Positions 11,050 to 45,619 of a stretch of DNA of 64,000 nucleotides are shown here, piece after piece. The stretch comes from a virus (lineage: Duplodnaviria; Caudoviricetes). The stretch lies in IMG/VR virus record IMGVR_UViG_3300009155_000035, one strand, 5' to 3'. Under the pieces are notes generated by a model. That model saw only the letters and a program-made list of their open reading frames with translations, searched no databases and was not told the DNA's origin. Position 1 is the first letter of the stretch; every line of letters begins with the position of its first letter. A program made the translations under genes and the position numbers.

Positions 11050-11124
11050 CTGGCCATAGTATAATGGATAATACAGTAGCCTTCTAAGCTATCAATCTAG
11101 GTTCGATTCCTAGTGGCCGGGCCA
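11050..11124 (+). tRNA. tRNA-Arg(TCT)
   Basis: Cloverleaf by hand; loop CT-TCT-AA; encoded CCA. Confidence 0.92.
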
Positions 11125-11214
11125 AGTTATTCAGAATGTGTCAACTAAACTTGATACTAAAGCGTTATATATGTGTAGGATATAAATTCTACGTAACATA
11201 GAAGGAAACTTATC

Positions 11215-11430
11215 ATGAAATTAGTCGCAACATTGATCGCTACTGCATTTGCAGTTACCGCTTTCGCCGCAGAACCTGCCAAGAAAGAAGAAAAGAAAGC
11301 TGATGCCAAGCCTGCTGTTACAGCACCGGCCCCTGCCGCTACTGCGCCAGCAACGCCTGCTAAAAGTGAGTCTGCTAAGAAAGACGCACCTAAAGCAGAC
11401 GCCAAGGCCGCTACTCCGGCTGCGAAGTGA
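11215..11430 (+). CDS. Small secreted Ala/Lys/Pro-rich protein
   Basis: Signal peptide MKLVATLIATAFAVTAFA followed by a low-complexity tail; GAAGGA RBS. Confidence 0.7.
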   Translation: MKLVATLIATAFAVTAFAAEPAKKEEKKADAKPAVTAPAPAATAPATPAKSESAKKDAPKADAKAATPAAK

Positions 11431-11591
11431 TCTAGATGAAGGTGACTTTGTTATCGATGACGAAGTCGCCCTTGGTCGTAATCTAAGAGCACGTAATTTT
11501 GGTAAAATAGTTCATGAAAATATTGTTTTATCAGATTATGTAAATTTTAGATTATGGCTAGCTAGACAATTAGCAATGAAAAAGTATGATG

Positions 11592-11619
11592 AAGTCTGGG
11601 GGTAAAATCCCAGACTTTT
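11592..11619 (+). terminator. Intrinsic terminator
   Basis: AAGTCTGGG/CCCAGACTT stem followed by TT. Confidence 0.6.
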
Positions 11620-11626
11620 CTAATTT

Positions 11627-11716
11627 GGAAGTGTGGCTGAGCCTGGTTTAAGGCAGCAGTCTTGAAAACTGTCGCTCCGAAAGGAGCCGTGAGTTCGAAT
11701 CTCACCACTTCCGCCA
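11627..11716 (+). tRNA. tRNA-Ser(TGA)
   Basis: Loop CT-TGA-AA, long variable arm, G73, CCA. Confidence 0.93.
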
Positions 11717-11733
11717 ACTTATAAGGATTGTTA

Positions 11734-12294
11734 ATGAAGATTTCCATCACTGGACACACACAAGGAATTGGTCAAGCATTATACCAAGGTTGGGTCAAAC
11801 AAGGTCATGATGTACGTGGCTTTAGCCGAAGCAACGGATATGATATTTCCACTGACCAGGGAATTGACCAAATTGTCAACGAGTGTGTGGACTGTGATGT
11901 GTTTGTTAACAATGCATATGATGCCAGCAAGAGAGATAGCCTTGCTGGATTTGCGCAAACTGTTCTACTGTATAAATTATGGGTTGCCTGGCAAGGACAA
12001 GACCGGACCATTATTGCTGTTGGTAGTAGAATGGTAGATGCTGTTCAGCCAAGAGTGTATCCATATCTCGCACACAAGACAGCATTGGATACTGCTGTTC
12101 ATCAACTTAGACTAGTGCAACAAACTAGTCCCAAAATTTTGTATGTCAAGCCCGGCTTGATTGACACCAACATGGTTGCAAATGTCACAGGATATAGCAA
12201 GTTGGATCCACAAGAAATCTTTAACGCATGTGATTGGGCACTCAACAACCCGTCGCAAATACTTGACCTAAGCATAGGGTCTTTAGGAATCTAG
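11734..12294 (+). CDS. Short-chain dehydrogenase/reductase
   Basis: TGHTQGIG, FVNNA, YLAHK (YxxxK). Confidence 0.8.
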   Translation: MKISITGHTQGIGQALYQGWVKQGHDVRGFSRSNGYDISTDQGIDQIVNECVDCDVFVNNAYDASKRDSLAGFAQTVLLYKLWVAWQGQDRTIIAVGSRMVDAVQPRVYPYLAHKTALDTAVHQLRLVQQTSPKILYVKPGLIDTNMVANVTGYSKLDPQEIFNACDWALNNPSQILDLSIGSLGI

Positions 12295-12323
12295 TTGACT
12301 GTAAGTGACAATGGTGTTATACT
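12295..12323 (+). promoter_or_regulatory. sigma70 promoter P1 of the tRNA/ncRNA operon
   Basis: TTGACT-17-TATACT. Confidence 0.75.
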
Positions 12324-12396
12324 AGAGTTAAGTTAGAAGCATAAGTGTTCCTAATGTGCAACTGGAAAATGTTGTAAAAATACAACAAAAAAACAG

Positions 12397-12425
12397 TTGA
12401 CACAAAAAAACAAGTGTCGTACAAT
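12397..12425 (+). promoter_or_regulatory. sigma70 promoter P2 of the tRNA/ncRNA operon
   Basis: TTGACA-17-TACAAT preceded by an A-rich UP-element-like tract. Confidence 0.85.
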
Positions 12426-12435
12426 TGATACTTGC

Positions 12436-12463
12436 GCTGATAACTCAGCAATGTTCTTTAAAA
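12436..12463 (+). promoter_or_regulatory. boxB-like hairpin plus boxA-like antitermination site
   Basis: GCTGA-TAAC-TCAGC, then TGTTCTTTAAAA (rrn boxA consensus TGCTCTTTAACA). Confidence 0.6.
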
Positions 12464-12500
12464 ATTTGCATTTCATGTAGTGATCCCGGGCTTGCTCGGG

Positions 12501-12765
12501 CACTATATGTAAACACACTAAGGTTACCTACACTGTTAGGGGTGAACGAAGGGCGATTGCGTAGAAGAAATTCTCGGCCTTGATACCCATGAAGCAGGAA
12601 GCCCGAAATAGATACCTGAGCCGATACCAAAGGCAACGAGTGGTTGAAATAGGGAACAACTTCCGGGAATGCGACAGGCTAAACAGTAGGCAGTAATGAG
12701 AAAAAACGTAGGTCGCCAGGTGGTGCTGAGATTTATATCCTTCCTTAATGTGTTTTCATATAGTG
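12501..12765 (+). ncRNA. Candidate ~220-nt structured RNA enclosed by a 23-bp stem
   Basis: CACTATATGTAAACACACTAAGG (12501-12523) pairs with CCTTAATGTGTTTTCATATAGTG (12743-12765) with 2 mismatches; no convincing ORF. Confidence 0.55.
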
Positions 12766-12770
12766 AATAT

Positions 12771-12846
12771 GGTCTTAAAGTGTTCATGGACGCACGACGG
12801 CTTGTCACGCCGTAAGAGTGGGGATCGTTACCCCCTAAGACCGCCA
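12771..12846 (+). tRNA. tRNA-Asp(GTC)
   Basis: Loop TT-GTC-AC; atypical T-loop ATCGTTA; CCA. Confidence 0.85.
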
Positions 12847-12925
12847 AGTTTTGAGAGTCACATCGCCTGGACACTTCCCTCGGTGACGAAGCACTAGGTC
12901 CTGCAACCGTGACTCTCCTTTATTT

Positions 12926-13000
12926 GCTCGATTCGTCTATCGGTTAGGACATCTGGTTTTCATCCAGGCAAGAGCGGTTCGACTCCGCTATCGAGTACCA
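12926..13000 (+). tRNA. tRNA-Glu(TTC)
   Basis: Loop TT-TTC-AT; CCA. Confidence 0.92.
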
Positions 13001-13005
13001 AACAT

Positions 13006-13091
13006 GGAGATGTGGCAGAGCGGTTGATTGCACCAGACTGTAAATCTGGCCCCTAAAAAGCACGGTGGTTCAAATCCATCCATCTCCACCA
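13006..13091 (+). tRNA. tRNA-Tyr(GTA)
   Basis: Loop CT-GTA-AA, long variable region, CCA. Confidence 0.92.
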
Positions 13092-13094
13092 AGA

Positions 13095-13292
13095 ACGTTC
13101 CGGGTGTCTCCGGATAGTGTGACCCACACGATGAGAAGTAGTGTGACAACTACGGGTGGTAGTCTTCGAACCCAAAGGCCGCTGGCAATGCGAGAACGGT
13201 CCCTGTCGGGAAGCGGGTGGAAGGAGTGTGTGATGGGTATGATAGCGTCATATCTTGATACTCTATAATTACCGCCGGGGGATGCAGAGCAT
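13095..13292 (+). ncRNA. Candidate ~200-nt multi-hairpin RNA
   Basis: GC-rich run of hairpins (TCCGG/CCGGA, GTGTG/CACAC, GTAGT/ACTAC, TATGA/TCATA) directly after tRNA-Tyr. Confidence 0.45.
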
Positions 13293-13297
13293 TTTTG

Positions 13298-13455
13298 TTT
13301 TTATAGTCAAGCATCGATACAGGTATCGTTGTGGGACGCCACAACTATGCGGGCCTAACTGTGCGAGGAACAGGTCCTGACATAACTGCTATTCGCTTGT
13401 CAGAGGAAGCACCTTTGTTGACAAATCGGCATCTCTCGATGCTTGACTATAAAAA
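13298..13455 (+). ncRNA. Candidate RNA enclosed by a perfect 20-bp inverted repeat
   Basis: TTTTTATAGTCAAGCATCGA / TCGATGCTTGACTATAAAAA flanking ~118 nt with internal hairpins. Confidence 0.55.
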
Positions 13456-13458
13456 TAT

Positions 13459-13536
13459 GTAGGGATGGCAGAGTGGTCAAATGCAACGGACTGCAAATCC
13501 GTAAAGCCGTGAGTTCAAATCTCACTCCCTACTCCA
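13459..13536 (+). tRNA. tRNA-Cys(GCA)
   Basis: Loop CT-GCA-AA; U73; CCA. Confidence 0.92.
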
Positions 13537-13544
13537 ATCAACAC

Positions 13545-13645
13545 GGGAGAGTTGCTAATATTGGCCTTAGGGCGAGCCTTATAAACTCGTAAGCACTGTC
13601 TAGATAAGGCAGCGAATGTGGGTTCGATTCCCACCTCTCCTACCA
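13545..13645 (+). tRNA. Atypical tRNA with TAT anticodon (nominally Ile/AUA) and a long variable arm
   Basis: 7-bp acceptor GGGAGAG/CTCTCCT, canonical T-arm, loop CT-TAT-AA, extra arm CTGTCT..AGGCAG, A73, CCA; 101 nt. Confidence 0.75.
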
Positions 13646-13661
13646 TTAAGTAAGTTTTAAC

Positions 13662-13736
13662 CGCGGGGTACGTCAGCGGTAGACTAGCGGGCTCATAACC
13701 CGAAAGACGGAGGTTCGATTCCTTCCCCCGCAACCA
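13662..13736 (+). tRNA. Initiator tRNA-fMet(CAT)
   Basis: C1:A72 mismatch and three G:C pairs next to the anticodon loop. Confidence 0.92.
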
Positions 13737-13741
13737 TTTGT

Positions 13742-13815
13742 GTATCCCTGGTGTAATGGCAGCATCGCAGTCTCCAAAACTGTTGGTCGGGGTTCGAGTC
13801 CCTGGGGGTACGCCA
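13742..13815 (+). tRNA. tRNA-Trp(CCA)
   Basis: Loop CT-CCA-AA; CCA. Confidence 0.92.
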
Positions 13816-13820
13816 TGTTT

Positions 13821-13894
13821 GGGCTGGTAGTTAAATGGGATAACGGTGGCTTTGCAAGCCTCAGTTGGGAGTTCGATTCTCCCTCGGTCCACCA
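13821..13894 (+). tRNA. tRNA-Ala(TGC)
   Basis: Loop TT-TGC-AA; G3:U70 identity pair; CCA. Confidence 0.9.
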
Positions 13895-13917
13895 AACATA
13901 TGATATATAAGGATATT

Positions 13918-14352
13918 ATGTTGCACTTAATCAAATCTGTTTCTGATTCGTTCGTTGAGTGTCTTAAGCAAGATCCTGTGCGCCCGCATATTCCTGAATC
14001 ATTGAGAGTTGGTAACAACCGCGATATCTTTGTGTCGCGAAAGGAAGATGCAGGTGCTCGAGCAGTTACTTGTGTAAGTTACCAACAACGCATCCCGGAA
14101 AGTGAAAATGAACTTTTCGAGGATACTGACACCCCCGAGGTTGTAGTTTTCTATACTATATGGAGCTATGAACCCGGTGCCGGTCGTGATTTAATCTTTG
14201 AGGCTCGAGACTGGATTCTAAAAAATCGCCCCGAGATCAAAAGATTTATAACCTTGAGTCCACCAACTGAAATGGCTCGAAGGTTTCACCTAAAGAATGG
14301 TGCTATAGTACATCGTGTCAATCAGAGCACAGTGAACTACGAGTACCTTTGA
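13918..14352 (+). CDS. Hypothetical protein, possibly GNAT-like fold
   Basis: ATG 13918 after AAGGA; VFYTIWSYEPGAGRDLI...TLSPPTEMARRFHLKNGA. Confidence 0.65.
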   Translation: MLHLIKSVSDSFVECLKQDPVRPHIPESLRVGNNRDIFVSRKEDAGARAVTCVSYQQRIPESENELFEDTDTPEVVVFYTIWSYEPGAGRDLIFEARDWILKNRPEIKRFITLSPPTEMARRFHLKNGAIVHRVNQSTVNYEYL

Positions 14353-14358
14353 CATTAT

Positions 14359-14434
14359 TGGGGGTTCGCCAAGTTGGTAAGGCATCGGATTTTGATTCCG
14401 ACATGCGGTGGTTCGAATCCATCACCCTCAGCCA
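14359..14434 (+). tRNA. tRNA-Gln(TTG)
   Basis: Loop TT-TTG-AT; CCA. Confidence 0.92.
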
Positions 14435-14455
14435 AATTTTACAATGGAGAATGAC

Positions 14456-14476
14456 ATGAAACGTACCAAACGTTAG
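14456..14476 (+). other. Mini-ORF MKRTKR* with RBS, followed by a hairpin
   Basis: GGAG RBS, ATG AAA CGT ACC AAA CGT TAG, then GTCATAGAC/GTCTATGAT stem. Confidence 0.35.
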
Positions 14477-14536
14477 TGTCGTCATAGACTTCCGTAGGTC
14501 TATGATTGGCACGTAAAATCAATTAATACGACTTAT

Positions 14537-14612
14537 GGGACTATAGCTCAGCCGGTAGAGCAGTGGACTTTTAATCCATTGGTCGCGAGTTCGAATCTCG
14601 CTGGTCCTACCA
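14537..14612 (+). tRNA. tRNA-Lys(TTT)
   Basis: Loop CT-TTT-AA; CCA. Confidence 0.93.
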
Positions 14613-14697
14613 TATAAAAACACATTACCAACGGTATCGCTTGTAGCAAAGCCCGTGCCAAAGTAGTCAGTCTAGGATAGTGTGTTTCTATATGGTA
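14608..14697 (+). ncRNA. Long-stem element closing a 52-nt loop
   Basis: TACCATATAAAAACACATT / AGTGTGTTTCTATATGGTA. Confidence 0.4.
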
Positions 14698-14724
14698 TTT
14701 TAGAAATAAGTATTAATGAGTTTT

Positions 14725-14799
14725 GCCCTTGTAGCTCACTGGTAGAGCACTCGCCTTGTAAGCGATAGGTAGTTAGTTCGATTCTAACCTGGGGCACCA
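14725..14799 (+). tRNA. tRNA-Thr(TGT)
   Basis: Loop CT-TGT-AA; CCA. Confidence 0.92.
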
Positions 14800-14805
14800 A
14801 AATTT

Positions 14806-14879
14806 GCGGGGTTCGTATAGTGGTAATACCTCAGCCTTCCAAGCTGATGCGGAGAGTTCGATTCTCTTACCCCGCTCCA
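14806..14879 (+). tRNA. tRNA-Gly(TCC)
   Basis: Loop CT-TCC-AA; U73; CCA. Confidence 0.93.
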
Positions 14880-14887
14880 TAGTTTAT

Positions 14888-14963
14888 TCCCTAGTAGCTC
14901 AGAGGTAGTAGCAACGGACTGTTAATCCGTGTGTCGGTGGTTCGATCCCACCCTGGGGAGCCA
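14888..14963 (+). tRNA. tRNA-Asn(GTT)
   Basis: Loop CT-GTT-AA; CCA. Confidence 0.93.
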
Positions 14964-14969
14964 AGTTTT

Positions 14970-15046
<77 letters not shown>

Positions 15047-15056
15047 GTTTTAGTAT

Positions 15057-15134
15057 ACCGCCTTAGCTCAATTGGATCAGAGCACTGTGCTACGAACGCA
15101 GGGGTTAGGAGTTCAAATCTCTTAGGTGGTACCA
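15057..15134 (+). tRNA. tRNA-Arg(ACG)
   Basis: Loop CT-ACG-AA; CCA. Confidence 0.92.
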
Positions 15135-15144
15135 AAGTTTACAA

Positions 15145-15234
15145 GGTGCGGTCCCATAATGGTATTGGAGCGGATTGCTAATCCGTCGAGTGGTGAAAGC
15201 CGCTTTCTGAGTTCGAGTCTCAGTCGCACCGCCA
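15145..15234 (+). tRNA. tRNA-Ser(GCT)
   Basis: Loop TT-GCT-AA; long variable arm; G73; CCA. Confidence 0.92.
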
Positions 15235-15240
15235 GTGTTT

Positions 15241-15315
15241 CGGTCTTTGGTGAAATGGATATCATGCTTGGCTTCGAACCAAGCGGTGTGGGTTCGATTC
15301 CTGCAGGACCGGCCA
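15241..15315 (+). tRNA. tRNA-Arg(TCG)
   Basis: Loop CT-TCG-AA; CCA. Confidence 0.9.
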
Positions 15316-15354
15316 AGTTTTATGTATATAAGTATATACACTCAAGGGGAAATC

Positions 15355-15654
15355 ATGTCACATGACGCAGACAAGTTTAAAAACAGCAAACGTAGACTCA
15401 AAGACGATAACGCTGTAAAAAAACAAGTTAAAATTGCCAAAGCGCATGGGTTAACTGACAATGATATTGCAGTAAAAGAGCCGCATCGCATGGTCAAACA
15501 TCATGCCATGGATTGCGGTCAACCCGGCTGCATGCTGTGCGGGAATCCGCGCAAGACATTTAACGAGCTTACTGCTCAAGAAAAACGTTTGTTTCAAGAC
15601 TTGGAAAAAGTCACAGACAAGCATTCAAATGGCACTATTCCCCCAGAAGAATAA
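15355..15654 (+). CDS. Hypothetical basic protein with a His/Cys cluster (possible Zn ligand set)
   Basis: ATG 15355 after AAGGGG; HHAMDCGQPGCMLCGNPRK. Confidence 0.7.
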   Translation: MSHDADKFKNSKRRLKDDNAVKKQVKIAKAHGLTDNDIAVKEPHRMVKHHAMDCGQPGCMLCGNPRKTFNELTAQEKRLFQDLEKVTDKHSNGTIPPEE

Positions 15655-15659
15655 ATCAT

Positions 15660-15735
15660 GGTGTTAGTAGTGTAGTGGTCTGCACATTGCTCTGTGAAAG
15701 CGAAGGTATGGGATCGTTCCCCATCTAACACCCCA
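15660..15735 (+). tRNA. tRNA-His(GTG)
   Basis: G-1:C73 pair; loop CT-GTG-AA; T-loop ATCGTTC; CCA. Confidence 0.88.
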
Positions 15736-15741
15736 AAATTT

Positions 15742-15817
15742 AGGAAGTTAGCTCAGTTGGTAGAGCATCTGCCTTACAAGCAGAATGTCATCGGTTCGAT
15801 CCCGGTACTTCCTACCA
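15742..15817 (+). tRNA. tRNA-Val(TAC)
   Basis: Loop CT-TAC-AA; CCA. Confidence 0.93.
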
Positions 15818-15829
15818 TTAATATAGTTT

Positions 15830-15905
15830 GGCGACGTAGCTCATCAGGTAGAGCGACAGACTGAAAATCTGTGCGTGGCTGGTTCGAGTCCAGCCGTTGC
15901 CACCA
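15830..15905 (+). tRNA. tRNA-Phe(GAA)
   Basis: Loop CT-GAA-AA; CCA. Confidence 0.93.
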
Positions 15906-15911
15906 GGTCAT

Positions 15912-15985
15912 AGCCGGTTAGCTCAAAGGTAGAGCACTCGACTGATAATCGAGAGACACAGGATCGATACCTGTACTGGCTACCA
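15912..15985 (+). tRNA. tRNA-Ile(GAT)
   Basis: Loop CT-GAT-AA; T-loop ATCGATA; CCA. Confidence 0.9.
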
Positions 15986-16136
15986 AAATTTTTTCTGGAA
16001 CAAAGTTAGCTCTAGGCCGATTTAACACTGGGTCTGGCACAAACTTTTGACTAGTGGTATAGGATGTTCTAGGAGTATACGGTAGCCTTGCCGATTTCGT
16101 ATACAAGATATCTGTATATGTGTTATAATCAGTCAT
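15918..16136 (-). CDS. Possible 72-aa antisense ORF under a late-type promoter
   Basis: TAAATA at 16146-16141 lies 4 nt before the ATG; the ORF fills the non-tRNA gap and runs antisense into tRNA-Ile. Confidence 0.3.
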   Translation of the reverse strand: MTDYNTYTDILYTKSARLPYTPRTSYTTSQKFVPDPVLNRPRANFVPEKILVASTGIDPVSLDYQSSALPLS

Positions 16137-16147
16137 AATGTATTTAA

Positions 16148-16230
16148 GCGGACGTGGCGTAATTGGTAGCCGCGCTGGTCTTAGAAGCCAGTCTTTCGGG
16201 GTGTGAGTTCGAGTCTCACCGTCCGCACCA
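16148..16230 (+). tRNA. tRNA-Leu(TAG)
   Basis: Loop CT-TAG-AA; variable arm; CCA. Confidence 0.92.
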
Positions 16231-16236
16231 AAATTT

Positions 16237-16323
16237 GCGAGTGTGGTGAAATAGGTAGACACAAGAGACTTAAAATCTCTCGCCCGAAAGGGCGTGCCGG
16301 TTCGATTCCGGCCACTCGTACCA
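16237..16323 (+). tRNA. tRNA-Leu(TAA)
   Basis: Loop CT-TAA-AA; variable arm GCCC-GAAA-GGGC; CCA. Confidence 0.93.
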
Positions 16324-16330
16324 TTGTTTT

Positions 16331-16496
16331 GCAAACAAAAAAACGTGTAGGGGTTTCCCCCGGCTGGCACTGTGCAGTGATGCACATCTAGCGGATCAGG
16401 TGTTTGGGTGTGAGGCCCAAAGTTGTTGCCGGTGATAAGTCAATCTATCGTCGATTGGTGTTCAGCCACACGCCCTAGCGAAACCGGTTTGTTTGC
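16331..16496 (+). ncRNA. Candidate multi-branched structured RNA
   Basis: Closed by GCAAACAAA/TTTGTTTGC; internal stems GTGCA/TGCAC, TTTGGG/CCCAAA, CAATC/GATTG, GGCTG/CAGCC. Confidence 0.5.
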
Positions 16497-16514
16497 TTTT
16501 TTTGTAAATACTGC

Positions 16515-16709
16515 ATGATTGTTGAATCAATATATGCGGTAGTTGACACAGTAGATCAACGACAACGTGTTAGGCATGTTACTAGCTTAGTGGACCAACA
16601 AGGTAGAACGTACACCGAAATTGAGCAGTATTTTTATACGTTATACAACAACAAGGGTACGCTTGAAGTAGAAAATGTCAAAGGCACGAATGTAGACCAC
16701 CAAGCATAA
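16515..16709 (+). CDS. Hypothetical protein (64 aa)
   Basis: ORF preceded by TAAATA at 16505. Confidence 0.6.
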   Translation: MIVESIYAVVDTVDQRQRVRHVTSLVDQQGRTYTEIEQYFYTLYNNKGTLEVENVKGTNVDHQA

Positions 16710-16710
16710 C

Positions 16711-16787
16711 GCCCTTGTGATGGAATTGGTATACGTGTCGGATTCAAAATCCGAATTTTGCGGGTTCGAGTCCCGCTGAGGGCACCA
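16711..16787 (+). tRNA. tRNA-Leu(CAA) lacking the long variable arm
   Basis: Loop TT-CAA-AA; Leu-type D-loop GGAATTGGTATAC; only 5-nt variable loop; CCA. Confidence 0.85.
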
Positions 16788-16792
16788 AATTT

Positions 16793-16942
16793 ATGAAATT
16801 ATTTGAAGCAACAATTAGAATAAACGGCAAAGAATTCAAAGATCGTGTTGGCGCAGAAAATGCACAAGAAGCAATGAAGCTTCTGCAACAACGGCATGGT
16901 CCAAGAGCTGTTCCGTACTTGCCTCACATGATTCCAAGTTAA
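16793..16942 (+). CDS. Hypothetical 49-aa protein (MKLFEATIRINGKEFKDRVGAENAQEAMKLLQQRHGPRAVPYLPHMIPS)
   Basis: Fills the gap between two tRNAs exactly. Confidence 0.6.
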   Translation: MKLFEATIRINGKEFKDRVGAENAQEAMKLLQQRHGPRAVPYLPHMIPS

Positions 16943-16943
16943 T

Positions 16944-17017
16944 GCGGGTATGATGTAATGGTAGCCTGTGACCTTGCCAAGGTTAGAGTGCGAGTTCGAT
17001 TCTCGCTACCCGCTCCA
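16944..17017 (+). tRNA. tRNA-Gly(GCC)
   Basis: Loop TT-GCC-AA; U73; CCA. Confidence 0.92.
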
Positions 17018-17022
17018 AATCT

Positions 17023-17097
17023 GGTGATATGACGTAGATGGATGCGTAGCGGTTTCATAAGCCGACGAGGAAGGATCGATACCTTCTATCACCACCA
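17023..17097 (+). tRNA. tRNA(CAT), probably elongator Met (Ile2 not excluded)
   Basis: Loop TT-CAT-AA; G1:C72 paired; T-loop ATCGATA; CCA. Confidence 0.85.
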
Positions 17098-17108
17098 TAA
17101 ATAAAATC

Positions 17109-18275
17109 ATGCTTATTGATGCCGATACACATTATGCACACCCTGATCTGTTTGATCATCTATCTTTTCAACATACTCCCTGGTTAGAGTTTCGCAAAAA
17201 AACACAAAACACCAATTTTGCAATCATCGACCGTATATGGAAAAGTGTATATGCAAACATTTGTGACGACTCCTGGCCCACTGTGCCAAACGCAGATCGT
17301 TTTCATGTGTTGCCCAAACACATTAGACAAGAAATTGCCGAGCATGATCTAGGCGATATATTTGTTGCCAAGGACTTGTCAAAAATAAAATACAAATTCC
17401 CGGATCCAAGTTCTACATTACCTGACATTGATGAGCTTGTTGACATTTGTCAAAACAGGCTTGGGGTTGACCGTGCGTTGATAAATGTGCAACCGTATCA
17501 GCAAGGCATTGGTTATTATGTGTCGCCTGCAGAAGCAGTGGAATTAATGACCACATACAATCGAGGCATGCTTGATGTTGTTAAGCCCTACAACAAATTT
17601 GATTTAACTGCTTGGTTGGCACTGCAAGATATTCAAGCCAGTGAACAAGAACTTGACTGGATCATTGATAACGACTTCTTTGCTGTATTTTTAAGCTTTC
17701 ATCCTGCATGGGGATTCATTCCTAGAGCAAAAAACATTTTTGCCAAGTGTAACAAAGCTGGTATGCCAATATACTTGCATCCTACTGCTGGCAGAGATAC
17801 CCCGTTTGATTACAACACTGACTGGACTGTTAACTGTGAATTATATCAAAAAATGAAACAAAGATGGCCCAGTGACGGACAGTCTTGGAAGATCACAGTT
17901 GCCAGTATCATTACCGAATACATCATGAAAGGCATGCCCGATCTTAAAATATTGGTTATTGAGCGTGGGATCAATTGGATCAAAGAGATAGAAGAATTTT
18001 TTGCTGAACAAGGTTTGCCTAATCCACTACCTATACTAAAAAACAATTTTTGGTACAGCACAGAGGTGGAGCACCCAACATTTTTAAGAGATGCAGAGTA
18101 CATTGGATGGGATCGTGTTATGTTTTCTACAGACTACCCCCACAATGAGGATGCTGGCTTGAACAAATACAAAGACGCCATCATGCTTGAGCAATATGTC
18201 AACAGTGGTAAAATTAACTCACATGACTATGAGTTGTTTTCACACAAAAATTACCTAAAACTAAAACAACGATAG
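17109..18275 (+). CDS. Amidohydrolase-2 family metal-dependent hydrolase
   Basis: MLIDADTHY (DxDxH), IYLHP, VIERG, FSTDYPH. Confidence 0.8.
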   Translation: MLIDADTHYAHPDLFDHLSFQHTPWLEFRKKTQNTNFAIIDRIWKSVYANICDDSWPTVPNADRFHVLPKHIRQEIAEHDLGDIFVAKDLSKIKYKFPDPSSTLPDIDELVDICQNRLGVDRALINVQPYQQGIGYYVSPAEAVELMTTYNRGMLDVVKPYNKFDLTAWLALQDIQASEQELDWIIDNDFFAVFLSFHPAWGFIPRAKNIFAKCNKAGMPIYLHPTAGRDTPFDYNTDWTVNCELYQKMKQRWPSDGQSWKITVASIITEYIMKGMPDLKILVIERGINWIKEIEEFFAEQGLPNPLPILKNNFWYSTEVEHPTFLRDAEYIGWDRVMFSTDYPHNEDAGLNKYKDAIMLEQYVNSGKINSHDYELFSHKNYLKLKQR

Positions 18276-18304
18276 TTGACTTTATATTGCTCCTATAGTA
18301 TAAT
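18276..18304 (+). promoter_or_regulatory. Consensus sigma70 promoter overlapping tRNA-Thr
   Basis: TTGACT-17-TATAAT; the -10 box is the tRNA D-arm sequence. Confidence 0.5.
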
Positions 18305-18362
18305 GGCAATACACGCCCTTGGTAAGGGCGAGCTACAAGTTCAATTCTTGTTAGGAGCACCA
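18289..18362 (+). tRNA. tRNA-Thr(GGT)
   Basis: GCTCCTA/TAGGAGC acceptor; loop TT-GGT-AA; CCA. Confidence 0.9.
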
Positions 18363-18559: not shown

Positions 18560-18965
18560 ATCAACATTTACTAACTCTCCCGGGCTAGTGCCCTTGAAGG
18601 TACAGTGTTTGATCAACAATGCAGTAGTATGGGAATATGTACTTGATTCAACACCTGTGACTATGAAAGTCAACCTTGACGACCATGTTGCATCAACTCA
18701 TCAAGTGGCAATTACTTTTGCAGGCAAAACTGGGATTGAGAATGATGATGCCAGTAGCACTGTTGTGCAAATCAGCAATATTCAAATAGAATCTATCAAC
18801 ATTGAGCCTGTGTTACAACGTATAGCTCAATATCATCACAACACAAACGGCTACAGTGATCCGCTGGTCAGTGAATACAGTAATTGCATAGGATTTGATG
18901 GTAGTTTACAATTTGAACTGGAAACTCCGGTCAGCAACTGGTTTTACAAAAATTATCCTTGGTGA
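18546..18965 (+). CDS. Hypothetical radical-SAM-associated protein (paralog family, copy 2)
   Basis: LKVQCLINN...ITFAGK...CIGFDGSLQFELETP echoes 6707 and 49452; ATG 18546. Confidence 0.65.
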   Translation: MALIESTFTNSPGLVPLKVQCLINNAVVWEYVLDSTPVTMKVNLDDHVASTHQVAITFAGKTGIENDDASSTVVQISNIQIESINIEPVLQRIAQYHHNTNGYSDPLVSEYSNCIGFDGSLQFELETPVSNWFYKNYPW

Positions 18966-19813
18966 CCAAGCACTCGTGTATTCAACAATTGGTTTTTAAA
19001 TTTTGATTGATTAGTCTCATAAACCAAATTGGTTGGACAAAATTTACATTGTGGGATCGCACTAGATGAAAACAAGTCCAAATCGTCTTGTGTGATTGCT
19101 CCGGGTTCAAGTGGTTGATATTGATCATACAGTTCTGGCACTGGCTGCCCAACTTGATTGAAATATTCTGGCAACAGATACACTACTCCGCATTTATAAA
19201 GTTTTCCATCAATAAAATGGTGGCAACGTTTCATTGTACACACACGATGTGCTTCAGTTGGATCTGAATCATGCAATTGATATTGGCCATCCTGAAAAAT
19301 GTTGTTGTGGAAATTTTCTCCACTTTTGATGTTGATCGTAATGCCCTGGGCCGTTTCGAACGCAATGCCATTGACAACTAAATTATTGTGTTGTATAATT
19401 TGTTTAATTCGGCAGTGACCAAAAGCTTGATTAATTTCACCAAGAACATAACTTCTCATTAGAGGATTGTGAACACAGATGTCTAATGTCCAACCAGTAT
19501 TTGCCAGCGCATCGGCTAGGCCAGATAGCTTAGTTAATCGAGTTCCATTTGAAACCACTTTGCCAACAGCATTGGGCCAACATTGGTGTATTCCTCGAAT
19601 CCAATCTGGAAGATCAGAATTCAAAGTTGGTTCGCCGCCAAGTATATTACAACTTTCTAAGTGTATGCACTCGGCCCAGCGTTGATAAGTACCTAAATTG
19701 AATTTATAATGTCCTTTGAATTTGCGATTGTTGAACCTATTACATTGCGGACAATCTAAATTACAAACATTGGTAACATAAAATTCTGCATATTTTAGAG
19801 TTGGTTTGGTCAT
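18953..19813 (-). CDS. Radical SAM protein with a C-terminal Cys cluster
   Basis: NVCNLDCPQC; ILGGEP; CTMKRC...LYKC...CKFC. Confidence 0.85.
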   Translation of the reverse strand: MTKPTLKYAEFYVTNVCNLDCPQCNRFNNRKFKGHYKFNLGTYQRWAECIHLESCNILGGEPTLNSDLPDWIRGIHQCWPNAVGKVVSNGTRLTKLSGLADALANTGWTLDICVHNPLMRSYVLGEINQAFGHCRIKQIIQHNNLVVNGIAFETAQGITINIKSGENFHNNIFQDGQYQLHDSDPTEAHRVCTMKRCHHFIDGKLYKCGVVYLLPEYFNQVGQPVPELYDQYQPLEPGAITQDDLDLFSSSAIPQCKFCPTNLVYETNQSKFKNQLLNTRVLGHQG

Positions 19814-20590: not shown

Positions 20591-20665
20591 ATGGACGACG
20601 ATCTGGTAAGATTTGTAGTAGGTGTAGTGATTGTTGTTGCAGTAGGTGCGGTAGTACTTCTATAG
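20591..20665 (+). CDS. 24-aa single-TM peptide (MDDDLVRFVVGVVIVVAVGAVVLL)
   Basis: GAGGA RBS; fully hydrophobic stretch. Confidence 0.45.
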   Translation: MDDDLVRFVVGVVIVVAVGAVVLL

Positions 20666-20696
20666 AAATATGTCAAAAGCACAAGTGTAGTAAATA

Positions 20697-21095
20697 AGAG
20701 CTATTGCTGTATGAAGCAATGCAAAAGGTGTTCTGGACGGGGGTTCGATTCCCCCCGGCTCCACCAAAAGGGAATTCAATGATAGTGTGTGTATGCAGAA
20801 AGATCAGTGATCGTGATTATGATTCCGAAGAGCAACTCCGAGATCGTATCATGCAACCTGATTTTCATTGTGGTTTTTGTCAACAACGCTATGAACTAGA
20901 GTTTTCTTCTGAAGGGGTCGATCGGTTTCGACAGGGCAAGGAGTAGCAGAGTGGACAGCTCGGCAAAGCAGAAGCCGTTAGGATTGGGGTAACCCGGTCG
21001 TAGAAGCAAAAAACGTAAACGCAAACGACGAACAGTTCGCATTGGCCGCCTAAACGCAGCCTAGGGTAAGACATACCTCGTAACAGAAACTCAAA
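20697..21095 (+). ncRNA. ssrA: Circularly permuted (two-piece) tmRNA
   Basis: T-arm plus CGGCTCCACCA (ends 20766) comes BEFORE the 5' strand GGGGTCG (20914); G3:U70 pair; tag ANDEQFALAA* at 21021-21053; no tRNA-like 3' end after the tag. Outer boundaries are approximate. Confidence 0.9.
20779..20946 (+). CDS. Bfd-like [2Fe-2S] ferredoxin-type peptide (55 aa) in the tmRNA intervening segment
   Basis: MIVCVCRKISD...HCGFC (C-x-C-x24-C-x2-C); AAGGGA RBS right after the CCA. Confidence 0.65.
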   Translation: MIVCVCRKISDRDYDSEEQLRDRIMQPDFHCGFCQQRYELEFSSEGVDRFRQGKE

Positions 21096-21117
21096 AGCCC
21101 ACTTCGGTGGGCTTTTT
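21093..21117 (+). terminator. Intrinsic terminator after tmRNA
   Basis: AAAAGCCCAC-TTCG-GTGGGCTTTTT. Confidence 0.9.
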
Positions 21118-21148
21118 CTTGACCACTTAATCTGTGATATAAATAATA

Positions 21149-40798: not shown

Positions 40799-41883
40799 TG
40801 TGTGTTCCTTGTTTGATAGTCATATCCCGGACGCATCAAATTGATTTGTTGCTGTTCGTAATCTGAATCATTCCAGCAGTAGTCATACACTGCTTGAACT
40901 CCGTCAACTTCTATGGAGTATATATCTAAATGTTCACCCAGTATACTCCATATCTTGGCATGATCTGTTGTGCCAAAACTTTGTTCTAGATTGACTTGTC
41001 CCACGGGCAAATAACCTAGACTGAGCTTGGGGTCCCGGGGGTCTAGACCATTTTCAATCAACCATTCCCGGAATGCACCAATTGTTTTATTGTGCCAAGT
41101 ATGTGCGCCGCCCAGCGTGATGTTGTTGCCCCACTCAATATCAAACTCGCCCGAGTAGTATTCTAAATGCGTTATTGCTTCGCACACAGCGGCAGTTAAC
41201 TCTGGTGCACCTTCGTCTCTGAACACTTCCATCAGTGTTTTTCCAATCTGTGCCCAGTGCATGTATACCCCACCCAGCACACGATCATAACCATTAGTGA
41301 CAAAGCCCTCGCGATGTTGATCCTGCAACGGGTAGCGTGGTGCATTGATCCATGTGGTAATTTGACTGGGACGTAACCAATAAAAGTTAGTGGCTGCTTT
41401 ACGTAATCCCAGTATGAGATTTTCCATTTCATGACAGATCAAATTCAGCTGTCTTATGGCATACTTTGTTTGATAGTCGGCGCCACGGTACCAGGCGCTT
41501 AGATTGTTCACTGTGCCTTGTAACACTTCAAAATGATTGTGTAACTGATTAAACAATTCGTGATTTACACCCATGGGACTGTGATCTGTGGCAAACACAT
41601 TCTCCGGGGTAAAGTGTTCAGCTATGTGATATCCGGGCAAATTGTTGTTGACCACAGCAATGTGTCTATTAACCTGCTCGCACAAATAAGGTATGTCACG
41701 AGCTGTTGTGGGGAAACCCATGAAACAAAAATTCTTTTCCAACAAACAAGAACTTTGTAATAATGATTTTAATGCCTGCACCCAGGCCCAGGCCAAGGCA
41801 TGATCTTGCACATCAATATAGTATGCATGCAGCCGAGACTTGTCTACTGGATTTCTCAGTGTTACTTTAACTTGGGATGTCAT
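40795..41883 (-). CDS. Hypothetical protein
   Basis: 362-aa ORF overlapping its neighbours. Confidence 0.7.
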   Translation of the reverse strand: MTSQVKVTLRNPVDKSRLHAYYIDVQDHALAWAWVQALKSLLQSSCLLEKNFCFMGFPTTARDIPYLCEQVNRHIAVVNNNLPGYHIAEHFTPENVFATDHSPMGVNHELFNQLHNHFEVLQGTVNNLSAWYRGADYQTKYAIRQLNLICHEMENLILGLRKAATNFYWLRPSQITTWINAPRYPLQDQHREGFVTNGYDRVLGGVYMHWAQIGKTLMEVFRDEGAPELTAAVCEAITHLEYYSGEFDIEWGNNITLGGAHTWHNKTIGAFREWLIENGLDPRDPKLSLGYLPVGQVNLEQSFGTTDHAKIWSILGEHLDIYSIEVDGVQAVYDYCWNDSDYEQQQINLMRPGYDYQTRNTQ

Positions 41884-43159
41884 TCCACCATTTTCCTATG
41901 TCTGCACGTTGTGATAAGATTTGTGCCATGTCAGTATCAGCTGATCTTATGCTTTCTAAACGCAGTACTCTACGCTTGCCACGAATCACAGCGTCTTGAT
42001 ATTGATCCGGCCACTGTTCCGCAAACGTGGGTCGATTCTTTAACTGTAACAGCACATCACGCATGGCTCCCGAACTCTTGGCAGCCAGTTCATCCGCCCA
42101 GGGTGTCAACAACTCACGTGGCAATGCCAAGGGACTCATTACAATGTCCGGGCTAAAGCTAAAGATTACCTTGGCCAATACGTCCACGCCTAATTGCTGT
42201 GCCAACTGATTGATATTTTCAACTTCAAACATGCCTGGAAGAGTAAGTGTAAAGTCCAGTCTCATTTGTCTAGGGTGCTTTGCGTACTGTGTTCCGAGTT
42301 CAAAGTTTTGTTTGAATTTCGAGTAGTCAAGCCCTGTTCTAATGTACTCACCGATTGATCCAGTGCCGTCAATGCTTGCGCAAATTTGCCAATCTCGTAC
42401 GTGAGCCAAAATATCGCTATAAAGATTACACCCCCGATAATCAACTCTGCTGAGATTGGTGTTGTATCTAGCGTAAACACGTGGTCCATCTCCTAATTCA
42501 ATGATCCTGCGCATGTAGCGCCAGTGCTGTTCATACATGAGAGGCTCTCCTCCTACCCAGTATATTTCTTCCACACGATGTTGTTCCACAGCTTCGGCAA
42601 ACTCTGCTTCAATTTGACTGTCTTGAAACTGGCTTATTTGTTCACGTACCGCAGGTTTCATCCAGTTGTTTTTGGCGTCGGCCCAGTTGATCATGTCATG
42701 CTGTCGCTGTTCACTTTCCCATGAACTGCTCAACATGTCCCCACAGGTTCTGCATTTAAAATTACAGAGATTTGAAAAACGATAGTCCCAGGATACAGGC
42801 TGCATTGTGGTCGAACCTGTTGCGTCTGTTGTACGTGCTATGTCATCGTACTTGTGTCGGAACAAATGCCAGAAATAAGTTCTATATACGTCGGTGTTTA
42901 ACAGTTTTGAATTGCACACATCACATTCAGGAAGCGTTTCCCCGGCCATCATGCGTCTGCGCACACTTCGCATGTGTTCCGAATTCCAGTGTTGCTCCAG
43001 CGTGACGGGCATGTATTTGCCTGTGCCCTGTGCTGTGTCTATGTACTGTGTAAAGCTCTGTGCAGGTTCCCGCGACGCACAACACATGCGTCGTTCTGTT
43101 TGTGGACTTAGGTACGTGTGCGTCCACGGTGCCATGCACAATGTATCAGGTTTTGTCAT
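41867..43159 (-). CDS. Radical SAM protein with N-terminal twitch/SPASM-like Cys cluster
   Basis: CMAPW..MCC..CDVC; NLCNFKCRTC; VGGEP. Confidence 0.88.
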   Translation of the reverse strand: MTKPDTLCMAPWTHTYLSPQTERRMCCASREPAQSFTQYIDTAQGTGKYMPVTLEQHWNSEHMRSVRRRMMAGETLPECDVCNSKLLNTDVYRTYFWHLFRHKYDDIARTTDATGSTTMQPVSWDYRFSNLCNFKCRTCGDMLSSSWESEQRQHDMINWADAKNNWMKPAVREQISQFQDSQIEAEFAEAVEQHRVEEIYWVGGEPLMYEQHWRYMRRIIELGDGPRVYARYNTNLSRVDYRGCNLYSDILAHVRDWQICASIDGTGSIGEYIRTGLDYSKFKQNFELGTQYAKHPRQMRLDFTLTLPGMFEVENINQLAQQLGVDVLAKVIFSFSPDIVMSPLALPRELLTPWADELAAKSSGAMRDVLLQLKNRPTFAEQWPDQYQDAVIRGKRRVLRLESIRSADTDMAQILSQRADIGKWWNDIPS

Positions 43160-44357
43160 AATCAATTAAAAAGGCCAATTCAGGGGCAACATCACATAGG
43201 TTTTGATTTCTACGTTGATCCACTAGACGAATGTTGTCTCTTAACACACGCCCACTGTCGGTTGCACCATTTGTCATGAAATCAACAATGCGGTCAAATT
43301 CCTCACGATATTGATCGGGAATCTGTGCATTGCGTAAATGATATCTAATACCTTGCTTGGCCTTTTCAGGCAAGGAAGCAATAGAGAAATACCAAGCATC
43401 GTGCATCATGTTCCAGTACACAAAGTCAAAATCCTGTGTCACAATCCAACGAGCCACTTGATCCAAGTAGCATATATTAAACACATTCACAGTGGTACAG
43501 CATTGCAGTCTAAGTCCGGGTATGCTGTGTTTCAAGTCTTGGAAACGACGAATGTTGTGTTCAACTTCGTGCCAACGAGCGTTTGTACGTTGATATTCAA
43601 ACCGTGCGCCTAGATCATCTATGCTAAATGCCACTTCCACTGTGCGAAAATGACGCCAAATTTCTGCAGCCTGTTCAGGAAACACAGTGCCATTTGTATT
43701 GTAATGTATTTCTACATTTTGTGCAATACCACGATTTACAATGCCCTGTAACATCGCAAAGTGTTCGGCAATTAAAAATGGCTCGCCGCCAGTGAATTCA
43801 ATATAGCGTATGTCTGACAGATTGTTTTCAATTTCCTGCCAAAACTGCGGACTGGATCTGGGCCAGGCGCCTGCACGTAGCATGTTGTGATGAAAGGTGC
43901 CACGACGTTGATCCGATGGCAATGCTTGTAGTTCCTCTGTGGCATATTGACTTGAACTCCAGGATCCGCAAATGCGGCATTTTAAATTGCAGATATTGCC
44001 CAACTTGAGATCCAAAAACATCAAAGGTCGTGCATCTACTGTCCAAGGTTGATCTTGCACAATATGCTTGAGTCGCTCCAAGGTGTGCATGCGTTTGCTG
44101 GTACGCCCACTATCTTCTTCGGCCCAACAGCGTCTACAGGTTTCTGGCTGTACACCATCAAGAAACTGCTGTCGCAAAGTTTGCATGTCACTGCTGTGTC
44201 TTATGGTGTCAAAACTGGCGGTGGCCAGTTCAAACTTGTTGCCGGCATCATCACACAGCTCATGATCAGCCAGACAGCAGGGGCGTACAGTGCCAATAGG
44301 TGAAGCTTCCATGCTGATCCAGGGCAAAACACAGAATTTAGAGTGTGGTAATTTCAT
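43146..44357 (-). CDS. Radical SAM protein with N-terminal twitch/SPASM-like Cys cluster
   Basis: CVLPW..PCC..CRRC; NICNLKCRIC; TGGEP. Confidence 0.88.
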   Translation of the reverse strand: MKLPHSKFCVLPWISMEASPIGTVRPCCLADHELCDDAGNKFELATASFDTIRHSSDMQTLRQQFLDGVQPETCRRCWAEEDSGRTSKRMHTLERLKHIVQDQPWTVDARPLMFLDLKLGNICNLKCRICGSWSSSQYATEELQALPSDQRRGTFHHNMLRAGAWPRSSPQFWQEIENNLSDIRYIEFTGGEPFLIAEHFAMLQGIVNRGIAQNVEIHYNTNGTVFPEQAAEIWRHFRTVEVAFSIDDLGARFEYQRTNARWHEVEHNIRRFQDLKHSIPGLRLQCCTTVNVFNICYLDQVARWIVTQDFDFVYWNMMHDAWYFSIASLPEKAKQGIRYHLRNAQIPDQYREEFDRIVDFMTNGATDSGRVLRDNIRLVDQRRNQNLCDVAPELAFLIDYDKT

Positions 44358-45619
44358 AAAAGAGCCTGTAATTCCGGCAGTGCATTTTGCCAATGCTCAT
44401 TTCGAATCGAATCCAACTCATGTGTTTTACGCCAGAATGAATCAATTAAATGAGTATTGTCTGTGGCATTCATAAACGTGATAGCTGATTCAAACCCCAC
44501 TGTGGCACGATTTAGAGGATCACGACCAGACAACCAATTGTCTATATGATCTCGATAACGTGCAGTTAGCCGAGCTTTGTATTCTGCAGGTGCTATATCT
44601 ATTCTATAGTATGCAGGGTCTTGCAGAATGTTTACATTTAGATCCTGCGCACGTATTAATCCAGCAGCCGTCCACTCACGGTGAAAGCTGGGCAGGTGCC
44701 AGGCGTTTAATATGCTCAGTGTGGGGCTGATATAAAAGTCCACACCTGGACAAATTCTCAGCATGTCATGACGATTTTTTACAACATCAGCCCACCGAGT
44801 ACCTTTGCGTATGTATTCAGCAGGATGACCCATGCCATCTAGACTGGCTCCCACAGCAACACTTTTGAATTCACGCCAGTACTCAAACACACTTTGACCT
44901 TTTAAATCGGTGTGTGTAAAGTTTGTATTGTATATCAGTCTGACGTCATCACGTCCTCGGCTCAATAACTCTTTGAGAATACGATAGTGCTCTTCCATCA
45001 ACAATGGCTCACCGCCAGCAAAATAGATTTGCTCTACATAGTCCAAATGGGGTTCTAGCTGTTCCCACATGTCTGTTTCTGTACGGCCAGCATAGTTTAG
45101 CACAGTGTTACGGTCCTTCCAGTCACCGCCGGCCAATTTGGCTTGATCTTGATACCATTGGCTACTGAAAATATGCCCACAACTGCGACATTTCAGGTTG
45201 CAAAGATTGCTGAAACGAATATCCCAGTATGTCATTTCAAAAGGATTTGTTTCTAGTTTTTTGATATGGTGCCCGTGATGCTTGTTGGCTGATTTTCGTC
45301 CACTAAAGAATCCTGACTGTTCCTGTTCATAGCAACGTGTGCAGGCCGGATGTGGTGTTTCACTCAGCATATCTTCTCGTAGCTGTTGCATGGGTTCGCC
45401 ACGCCATATTTGTTCCAGCGTGTGTGTGCGACAATTGCCCACAACGCCAGGTTTCATTTCGGCGTGACAGCAGGGATATGCTTCGCCTGTGGGGTAAGCA
45501 TGTAGGTGTATCCAGGGATAGATGCAAAAGGTTTTGGAATCTCGTAATAAAAATTCCTCACGTTCAGTCAGTTCAATTGGACGAACTAGATCTGCTGAAT
45601 TATAATTGTATTGAGTCAT
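44354..45619 (-). CDS. Radical SAM protein with N-terminal twitch/SPASM-like Cys cluster
   Basis: CIYPW..PCC..CTRC; NLCNLKCRSC; AGGEP. Confidence 0.88.
   Translation of the reverse strand: MTQYNYNSADLVRPIELTEREEFLLRDSKTFCIYPWIHLHAYPTGEAYPCCHAEMKPGVVGNCRTHTLEQIWRGEPMQQLREDMLSETPHPACTRCYEQEQSGFFSGRKSANKHHGHHIKKLETNPFEMTYWDIRFSNLCNLKCRSCGHIFSSQWYQDQAKLAGGDWKDRNTVLNYAGRTETDMWEQLEPHLDYVEQIYFAGGEPLLMEEHYRILKELLSRGRDDVRLIYNTNFTHTDLKGQSVFEYWREFKSVAVGASLDGMGHPAEYIRKGTRWADVVKNRHDMLRICPGVDFYISPTLSILNAWHLPSFHREWTAAGLIRAQDLNVNILQDPAYYRIDIAPAEYKARLTARYRDHIDNWLSGRDPLNRATVGFESAITFMNATDNTHLIDSFWRKTHELDSIRNEHWQNALPELQALL

Follow-up and report, generated by a model that had tools for sequence, protein, structure and literature searches.

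A four-cysteine mini-protein gene nested in the spacer of a permuted phage tmRNA, with its stop codon in the coding piece

A stretch of 64,000 nt from the IMG/VR virus record IMGVR_UViG_3300009155_000035 (Duplodnaviria; Caudoviricetes), here called the window, was analysed around its tmRNA gene. The window comes from an uncultured jumbo phage of freshwater, and contigs of up to 242 kb carry the same product of the open reading frame (ORF) described below. The window contains 27 tRNA genes (11050-18362). A permuted tmRNA (tmRNA*) with the tag ANDEQFALAA was called by ARAGORN at 20674-21144, and the gene passed the thresholds of two Rfam models, beta_tmRNA with 131.2 bits (threshold 84) and tmRNA_permuted with 121.7 bits (threshold 47). 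The features of the locus are as follows, with the evidence for each in brackets.

20705-20766, + strand: tmRNA acceptor piece (Rfam tmRNA_permuted match begins at 20705; sequence; computed acceptor pairing)
20707-20716, + strand: stretch of the P2 5' strand, within the acceptor piece; counterpart of the stretch coding for ..KELLYEVE in relatives
20739-20743 and 20751-20755, + strand: T-arm stem, with its loop at 20744-20750
20756-20762, + strand: acceptor 3' strand CGGCUCC, followed by the discriminator A (20763) and the CCA (20764-20766)
20767-20913, + strand: intervening segment (spacer) of 147 nt, between the CCA and G1
20768-20777, + strand: closing stem 5' strand AAGGGAAUUC, containing the Shine-Dalgarno (SD) stretch (MFE folds, RNAalifold)
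20779-20946, + strand: gene of a 55-aa four-cysteine (Cys4) mini-protein, P0001 (ORF, homologues, codon signature, AlphaFold model)
20899-20908, + strand: closing stem 3' strand GAGUUUUCUU, codons 41-44, anti-SD (MFE folds, RNAalifold)
20914-21119, + strand: tmRNA coding piece (ARAGORN, Rfam alignment, acceptor pairing)
20914-20920, + strand: acceptor 5' strand in the coding piece, beginning with G1 (20914)
21021-21053, + strand: tag reading frame ANDEQFALAA and its stop (ARAGORN)
21093-21120, + strand: terminator-like hairpin and T run, end of the tmRNA gene (sequence; last Rfam beta_tmRNA helix here)

The order of acceptor piece, CCA, spacer and coding piece is that of the permuted tmRNAs of Alpha- and Betaproteobacteria, Cyanobacteria and phages (RF04321, RF01850; PMC11915505). 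For such genes, tRNA-processing enzymes divide the transcript into two pieces, which remain base-paired after the spacer has been lost (PMC11915505). At this locus CGGCUCC (20756-20762) pairs with GGGGUCG (from 20914) at 7 of 7 positions, including G3:U70. As the CCA ends at 20766 and the complementary 5' strand begins at 20914, the spacer was delimited to 20767-20913. Cleavage by RNase P at exactly G1 was assumed from the rules for tRNAs and tmRNAs, and is complicated by U(-1), for which the discriminator A is a potential pairing partner in most relatives. The palindrome of the terminator-like hairpin was also found on the minus strand by scan, and no sigma-70 promoter for the tmRNA was found by consensus scan. 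A 24-codon hydrophobic ORF with a strong SD (MDDDLVRFVVGVVIVVAVGAVVLL; 20591-20665, + strand) ends 9 nt before the tmRNA start given by ARAGORN, and a similar-looking 24-aa hydrophobic ORF lies in the tmRNA spacer of another locus (L117). Contigs from freshwater metagenomes and metatranscriptomes carry abundant tmRNAs that are 85-95% like 20932-21093 and lack the spacer ORF, and by its sequence this body of the phage tmRNA looks host-like. From a list of 24 runs, the RNA and DNA runs compared with the region contain pieces of related tmRNAs only, and depth over 20770-20904 was zero, which speaks neither for nor against expression.

The P0001 ORF starts with an ATG at 20779, has 55 codons and ends with TAG (20944-20946), and AAGGGA (20768-20773) stands right behind the CCA. 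Its cysteines follow the pattern C4-x-C6-x24-C31-x2-C34. Codon 46 (GGG) starts at G1, and the last base of the stop is the 33rd of the coding piece; residues 1-45 are encoded by the spacer and residues 46-55 by the 5' end of the tmRNA. The original prediction, made from the sequence, had described a ribosome-binding site directly after the CCA, a 55-codon ORF with this cysteine spacing, a codon 46 beginning at the 5' G of the tmRNA and a stop inside the tmRNA, and every coordinate it gave agrees with the sequence and the ORF.

An exhaustive HMMER protein search returned 72 cluster representatives homologous to P0001 at E <= 1e-3. With few exceptions they are 46-98 aa long, and the match always spans residues 1 to about 43. 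The alignment of 70 sequences has C4, C6, R7, C31 and C34 invariant, and I9, L20, R23, D28 and G32 near-invariant. Among 92 distinct DNA sequences, entropy was 0.94, 0.71 and 1.40 bits at codon positions 1, 2 and 3, and the synonymous share of differing codons was 36% in frame, against 7-9% in shifted frames. AlphaFold2 run with the family alignment gave a pLDDT >90 for residues 1-43 and <65, disordered, for the tail 44-55; by this split at residue 43, the spacer contains the whole of a small domain, and the tail is the translation of a tmRNA piece. Judged by these signatures, the P0001 ORF is a genuine gene, beyond chance, and the homologues, the invariant residues and the codon signature uphold the earlier view of the spacer as a protein-coding message. 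Three large repetitive 'homologues' (P0020, P0031 and P0052) were rejected as low-complexity artefacts. Peptide patterns found no close relatives of P0001 in IMG/VR. Against isolate phages, blastn of the region gave T-arm matches only, and tblastn of P0001 gave no match at E <= 0.01. P0001 has no PHROG family, and no match in Pfam at E <= 10 or in NCBIfam at E <= 1.

From its four invariant cysteines and the confidently modelled small fold, the domain of about 43 residues is most likely a metal- or Fe-S-binding mini-protein. The original prediction had called it a Bfd-like Fe-S peptide. The CxC...CxxC cysteine order of Bfd is present in the 70 sequences, as C4, C6, C31 and C34, and three members carry the name Bfd in the JGI annotation. 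An N-terminal M-[IY]-V-C-x-C-x-x-[IV]-[ST]-D and a later C-G-x-C are shared with Bfd/Fer2_BFD (PF04324, NF007803), as in MIVCVCRKISD compared with MYVCLCNAVTD. Fer2_BFD (Pfam) and NCBIfam Bfd were the commonest weak matches among the 70 members (10/70 and 6/70, respectively), all of them sub-threshold, with a best E of 0.0036, and PF04324 missed the family gene in two genomes known to have it. With hhalign, the family alignment matched genuine Bfd ORFs over 14 residues (probability 12%; L184) and 12 residues (probability 7.5%; L186). The cysteine spacing of 24 residues compares with 31 in the Bfd of L184. No Bfd chain turned up at E <= 10 when the PDB was searched by profile, fold searches (Foldseek against the PDB, VIA-align wide, AFDB clusters and the ESM Atlas by shape) gave no meaningful match, and the ESM Atlas searched by features returned unannotated clusters only. 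As no member reaches the cut-off, the hhalign matches are short, the spacing differs and the fold searches are empty, membership of the Bfd family is unsupported. What stands of the earlier assignment is the CxC...CxxC motif, and 'Bfd-like' is a motif resemblance only; the missed family thresholds and the 14-residue match at 12% speak against more than that. An ArfA-like (PF03889) rescue factor was rejected as a candidate on account of the acidic charge (net charge -3 for the window protein, family median -2) and the absence of homology (no Pfam match), and the acidity of the family likewise argues against an analogue of ArfA or BrfA.

The original prediction had put the radical SAM genes of the genome at 10. 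Within the window alone, six ORFs have the radical-SAM motif CxxxCxxC; ORFs with this motif lie at 18953-19813, at 41867-45619, where three are tandem paralogues, and at 51062-53498 (- strand). At L183, a 466-aa NifU_N (Fe-S scaffold) protein is encoded at 67-1467, directly upstream of a tmRNA with the Cys4 gene in its spacer. At L137 (445-999), a single case, a Cys4 ORF without a stop of its own continues in frame into a gene for rubrerythrin (PF02915, E 1.4e-25), in which the usual start MELKGS is preserved; this fusion was set aside as a functional clue, the longer rubrerythrin matches being internal duplications and not Cys4 fusions. The six CxxxCxxC ORFs, the NifU_N protein and the rubrerythrin are compatible with a redox or iron role and are no proof of one, and a link to iron status is speculation.

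Family loci were retrieved with two degenerate DNA patterns from IMG/VR, JGI metagenomes and GTDB MAGs, on partial contigs, and the 154 loci fell into 35 clusters at 80% identity. In six clusters (the window with L001, the L018 clade with 17 loci, L179, L181, L182 and L183) the gene lies inside a tmRNA spacer, each confirmed by Rfam or ARAGORN. The tags differ across these clusters (ANDEQFALAA, ATANDAEFAIAA, ANDNVAFALAA, ANDELFQLAA, a 22-residue tag and AATRAVALA), with two different tags within the L018 clade, and some score best with an alpha-type full-length Rfam model, others with a beta-type one. The start codon stands 9-12 nt after the CCA except in L179, which has 29 extra N-terminal codons, and the spacer measures 239 nt in L179 and 132-147 nt in the others. 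A GGG codon (codon 42-48), which follows GAU, GAA or GAG, has G1 as its first base, and the stop is reached 27-66 nt into the coding piece. Conservation of the cysteine pattern and of the stop-inside-tmRNA layout in related phages had been named in the original prediction as a check, and both were found in 6/6 in-spacer clusters.

The two ends of the spacer pair with each other. In MFE folds of 10/10 distinct in-spacer sequences, spacer positions +2 to +11 pair in the same register with positions -6 to -15 before G1, the SD stretch AAGGRAAnuu lying opposite pyrimidine-rich last codons such as GAGUUUUCUU. UG at 20910-20911 (-3/-4 before G1) pairs with the CA of the CCA, so that the stem continues the acceptor stem. 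The RNAalifold consensus contains the same closing stem with 9 pairs, of which 3 have changes on both sides and most others wobble-compatible changes on one side; the acceptor stem has many compensatory changes. Covariation of the closing stem is modest, with few fully compensatory changes, and its purine and pyrimidine strands are under the added constraint of SD function and coding. The stem would also account for the residues F, L, S and D or E that are encoded ahead of G1. RNAalifold further pairs AUGAUA, which includes the start codon (20779-20784), with UAUCAU of the R-I-M codons (20847-20852; columns 110-115/178-183 of alignment A4), a pairing that may reflect coding constraint only.

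Folding of the tRNA-like domain with this extension would mask the SD, and a ribosome finishing the ORF would have to melt both. Because the SD is paired with the last codons before G1, translation and tmRNA folding are predicted to be mutually exclusive. The proposal that translation of the precursor blocks folding of the acceptor stem is thus strengthened by the conserved SD/anti-SD stem. Taken together, the constant start distance, G1 frame and stem register across otherwise different tmRNAs point to a selected architecture and not to random insertion.

The gene was also found outside spacers. In four clusters, including the largest (44 loci), it lies directly upstream of a permuted tmRNA and its stop is about 20 nt into the acceptor piece, about 19 nt before the T-loop. 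The conserved tail of these products, ..KELLYEVE, is the translated P2 5' strand of the tmRNA, a stretch that the window also has (20707-20716). In four clusters the gene's own stop comes 6-850 nt before the tmRNA. In six clusters within tRNA arrays the gene lies 9-16 nt past the 3' end of a tRNA (tRNA-Asn, tRNA-Ile, tRNA-Trp or tRNA-Glu). One cluster, L063 (3585-3878) and L086 (2148-2441), has the Cys4 gene filling the 140-nt spacer between tRNA-Glu and tRNA-Cys; the start is 14 nt after the CCA of tRNA-Glu, the stop is 54 nt inside tRNA-Cys, and the first base of tRNA-Cys is again at codon position 1. At L126 the stop of the gene abuts tRNA-Glu. About 15 of the 35 clusters have no tmRNA or tRNA in the DNA searched, often short stretches; these clusters and the four with a stop of their own make the nested design one of several.

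Some phage tmRNAs that have the Cys4 gene upstream contain other SD-led small ORFs in their spacers (L019, L014, L092, L075, L090 and L117). L014 and L092 have a conserved 70-aa spacer ORF in common, which crosses G1 in a different frame; the spacer ORF of L019 is 61 aa long, and the peptide WDDYFPPLNLWNY in the L075 spacer is the N-terminal extension of the Cys4 ORF of L179.

Between the window and L001, the spacer ORF is 95% identical and the T-arm with the acceptor 95%, against 38-46% for the rest of the tmRNA; the two loci have different tags and unrelated flanking genes. This contrast in identity, with unlike flanks and tags and with tmRNAs in the runs that match the body and not the ORF, indicates that a module of T-arm, ORF and 5' acceptor strand has been exchanged between differing tmRNA genes. 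The cassette therefore appears to move between tmRNA genes, and it also sits beside tmRNAs and tRNAs.

The reading we favour, and which we hold to be somewhat probable, is that the spacer is a nested gene cassette whose protein is made on the precursor until stem closure and the RNase P cut end the output. Synthesis of the protein would take place while the precursor is nascent or unprocessed, either ahead of anti-SD transcription or for as long as ribosomes hold the stem open. As the SD is transcribed about 120 nt ahead of its masking partner, ribosomes would have some time to load. A ribosome reading past G1 to the stop 33 nt further on would keep the acceptor stem open. Once ribosomes are gone, the stem would close, the SD would be masked and the tRNA-like domain would form. 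RNase P would then cut at G1 and sever the ORF from its stop codon, and this separation would limit protein output to a burst per tmRNA transcript. Any ribosomes stuck on the spacer after cleavage would turn into non-stop complexes, with tagging of their 45-residue product. In our view this self-tagging would be a by-product or a shut-off and not the main route, because the excised spacer, with its SD locked in a 10-bp stem, would be a poor mRNA.

tmRNA tags the products of stop-less mRNAs. In line with the circuit of the original prediction, the excised stop-less spacer could itself be a working mRNA, with a product that is always tagged (…SSE-AANDEQFALAA) and degraded and that accumulates only if trans-translation or proteolysis is saturated, which would place an ArfA-like sensor logic on the Cys4 protein. 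We regard this as unlikely. The stop does lie past the RNase P site, in the same frame, in every in-spacer lineage, and stops placed within the stable RNA that follows are seen again in the acceptor piece and in tRNA-Cys. However, the folded domain ends only 3-8 codons ahead of G1, and in so short a stretch the lack of a stop is expected by chance, at about 0.8 per lineage. The masking of the SD in the excised spacer and the acidity of the family, unlike ArfA and BrfA, also weigh against it. Many relatives have ordinary stops or no nearby tmRNA, and for this reason the self-tagging circuit cannot be the general purpose of the family. A precedent is arfA of E. coli, which has a non-stop mRNA and whose product is repressed by trans-translation (PMC10107115).

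In the fullest form of this idea, which we likewise think doubtful, the Cys4 product reports tmRNA maturation and trans-translation capacity. It would be stable only if it came from a precursor not yet processed, or if tagging and proteolysis were at saturation, and the stop would have been placed deliberately inside the next RNase-P-processed RNA, a device reused at the coding piece, the acceptor piece and a tRNA. If true, the logic would resemble that of ArfA, with the tmRNA precursor itself serving as mRNA and nuclease target at once.

Alternatively, spacers next to tRNA-like 3' ends may be no more than safe, co-transcribed slots for a small mobile gene, the overlap and the stem having no regulatory role and the protein acting elsewhere, e.g. 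as a redox partner of radical-SAM enzymes. The presence of the gene after four kinds of tRNA and alone, the unrelated small ORFs that fill other phage tmRNA spacers, the six CxxxCxxC ORFs of the window, the NifU_N gene that adjoins the tmRNA in L183 and the in-frame run of the L137 ORF into a rubrerythrin gene would all fit. We nevertheless judge it improbable, since start distance, G1 frame and stem register stay constant across differing tmRNAs, and since any translated ORF at this place must physically disturb formation of the acceptor stem. That the ORF is untranslated and the spacer is kept as an RNA structure only is very unlikely: compared with shuffled sequences the spacer has a somewhat better fold (z = -1.9), and its ends pair, but third-position variability and the synonymous excess are specific to the ORF frame, the Cys and Arg residues are invariant in 70 sequences, and the same protein occurs outside tmRNAs in other contexts.

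Compared with known permuted tmRNAs, the nested cassette proposed here differs in that a conserved protein gene occupies nearly all of the spacer and crosses the maturation site. The 2025 tmRNA database paper names only a tRNA-Ala or a repeat as spacer content (PMC11915505), and the full-text literature searched contained no protein genes in tmRNA spacers, such spacers being described as discarded RNA. The nearest published analogues are the S23p ORF in the intervening sequence (IVS) of 23S rRNA (Coxiella burnetii, PMC4990558) and arfA. Like the spacer gene, S23p is a mobile ORF in a stem-closed spacer of a stable RNA precursor, excision being predicted in the present case. The S23p ORF lies wholly inside the IVS and reportedly appears to give no protein (PMC4990558), whereas the ORF described here is under strong coding selection and has its stop 33 nt outside the spacer, in the mature RNA. 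No homology to S23p was found for P0001 or its family (no Pfam match). As with arfA, RNA processing would remove the stop and create a substrate for tmRNA tagging (PMC10107115), which is here predicted from the geometry of the locus. ArfA is a basic rescue factor, whereas the present family is acidic and cysteine-rich, and the RNA predicted to cut off the stop is in this case the tmRNA precursor itself. Specific to the present system are the Cys4 family, the fixed-frame read-through of the maturation site, the SD/anti-SD stem and the reuse beside tmRNAs and tRNAs.

The gene belongs to a phage protein family that is uncatalogued in Pfam and PHROGs and is tied to tmRNA and tRNA genes. A tmRNA spacer, usually treated as disposable, is here a selected coding message wired into the structure of the precursor, so that a stable RNA and an mRNA would compete for one molecule. 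The locus thereby offers a testable case of translation-versus-processing control and a possible natural non-stop substrate of the phage's own tmRNA, and it bears on the question of what phage-encoded tmRNAs are for.
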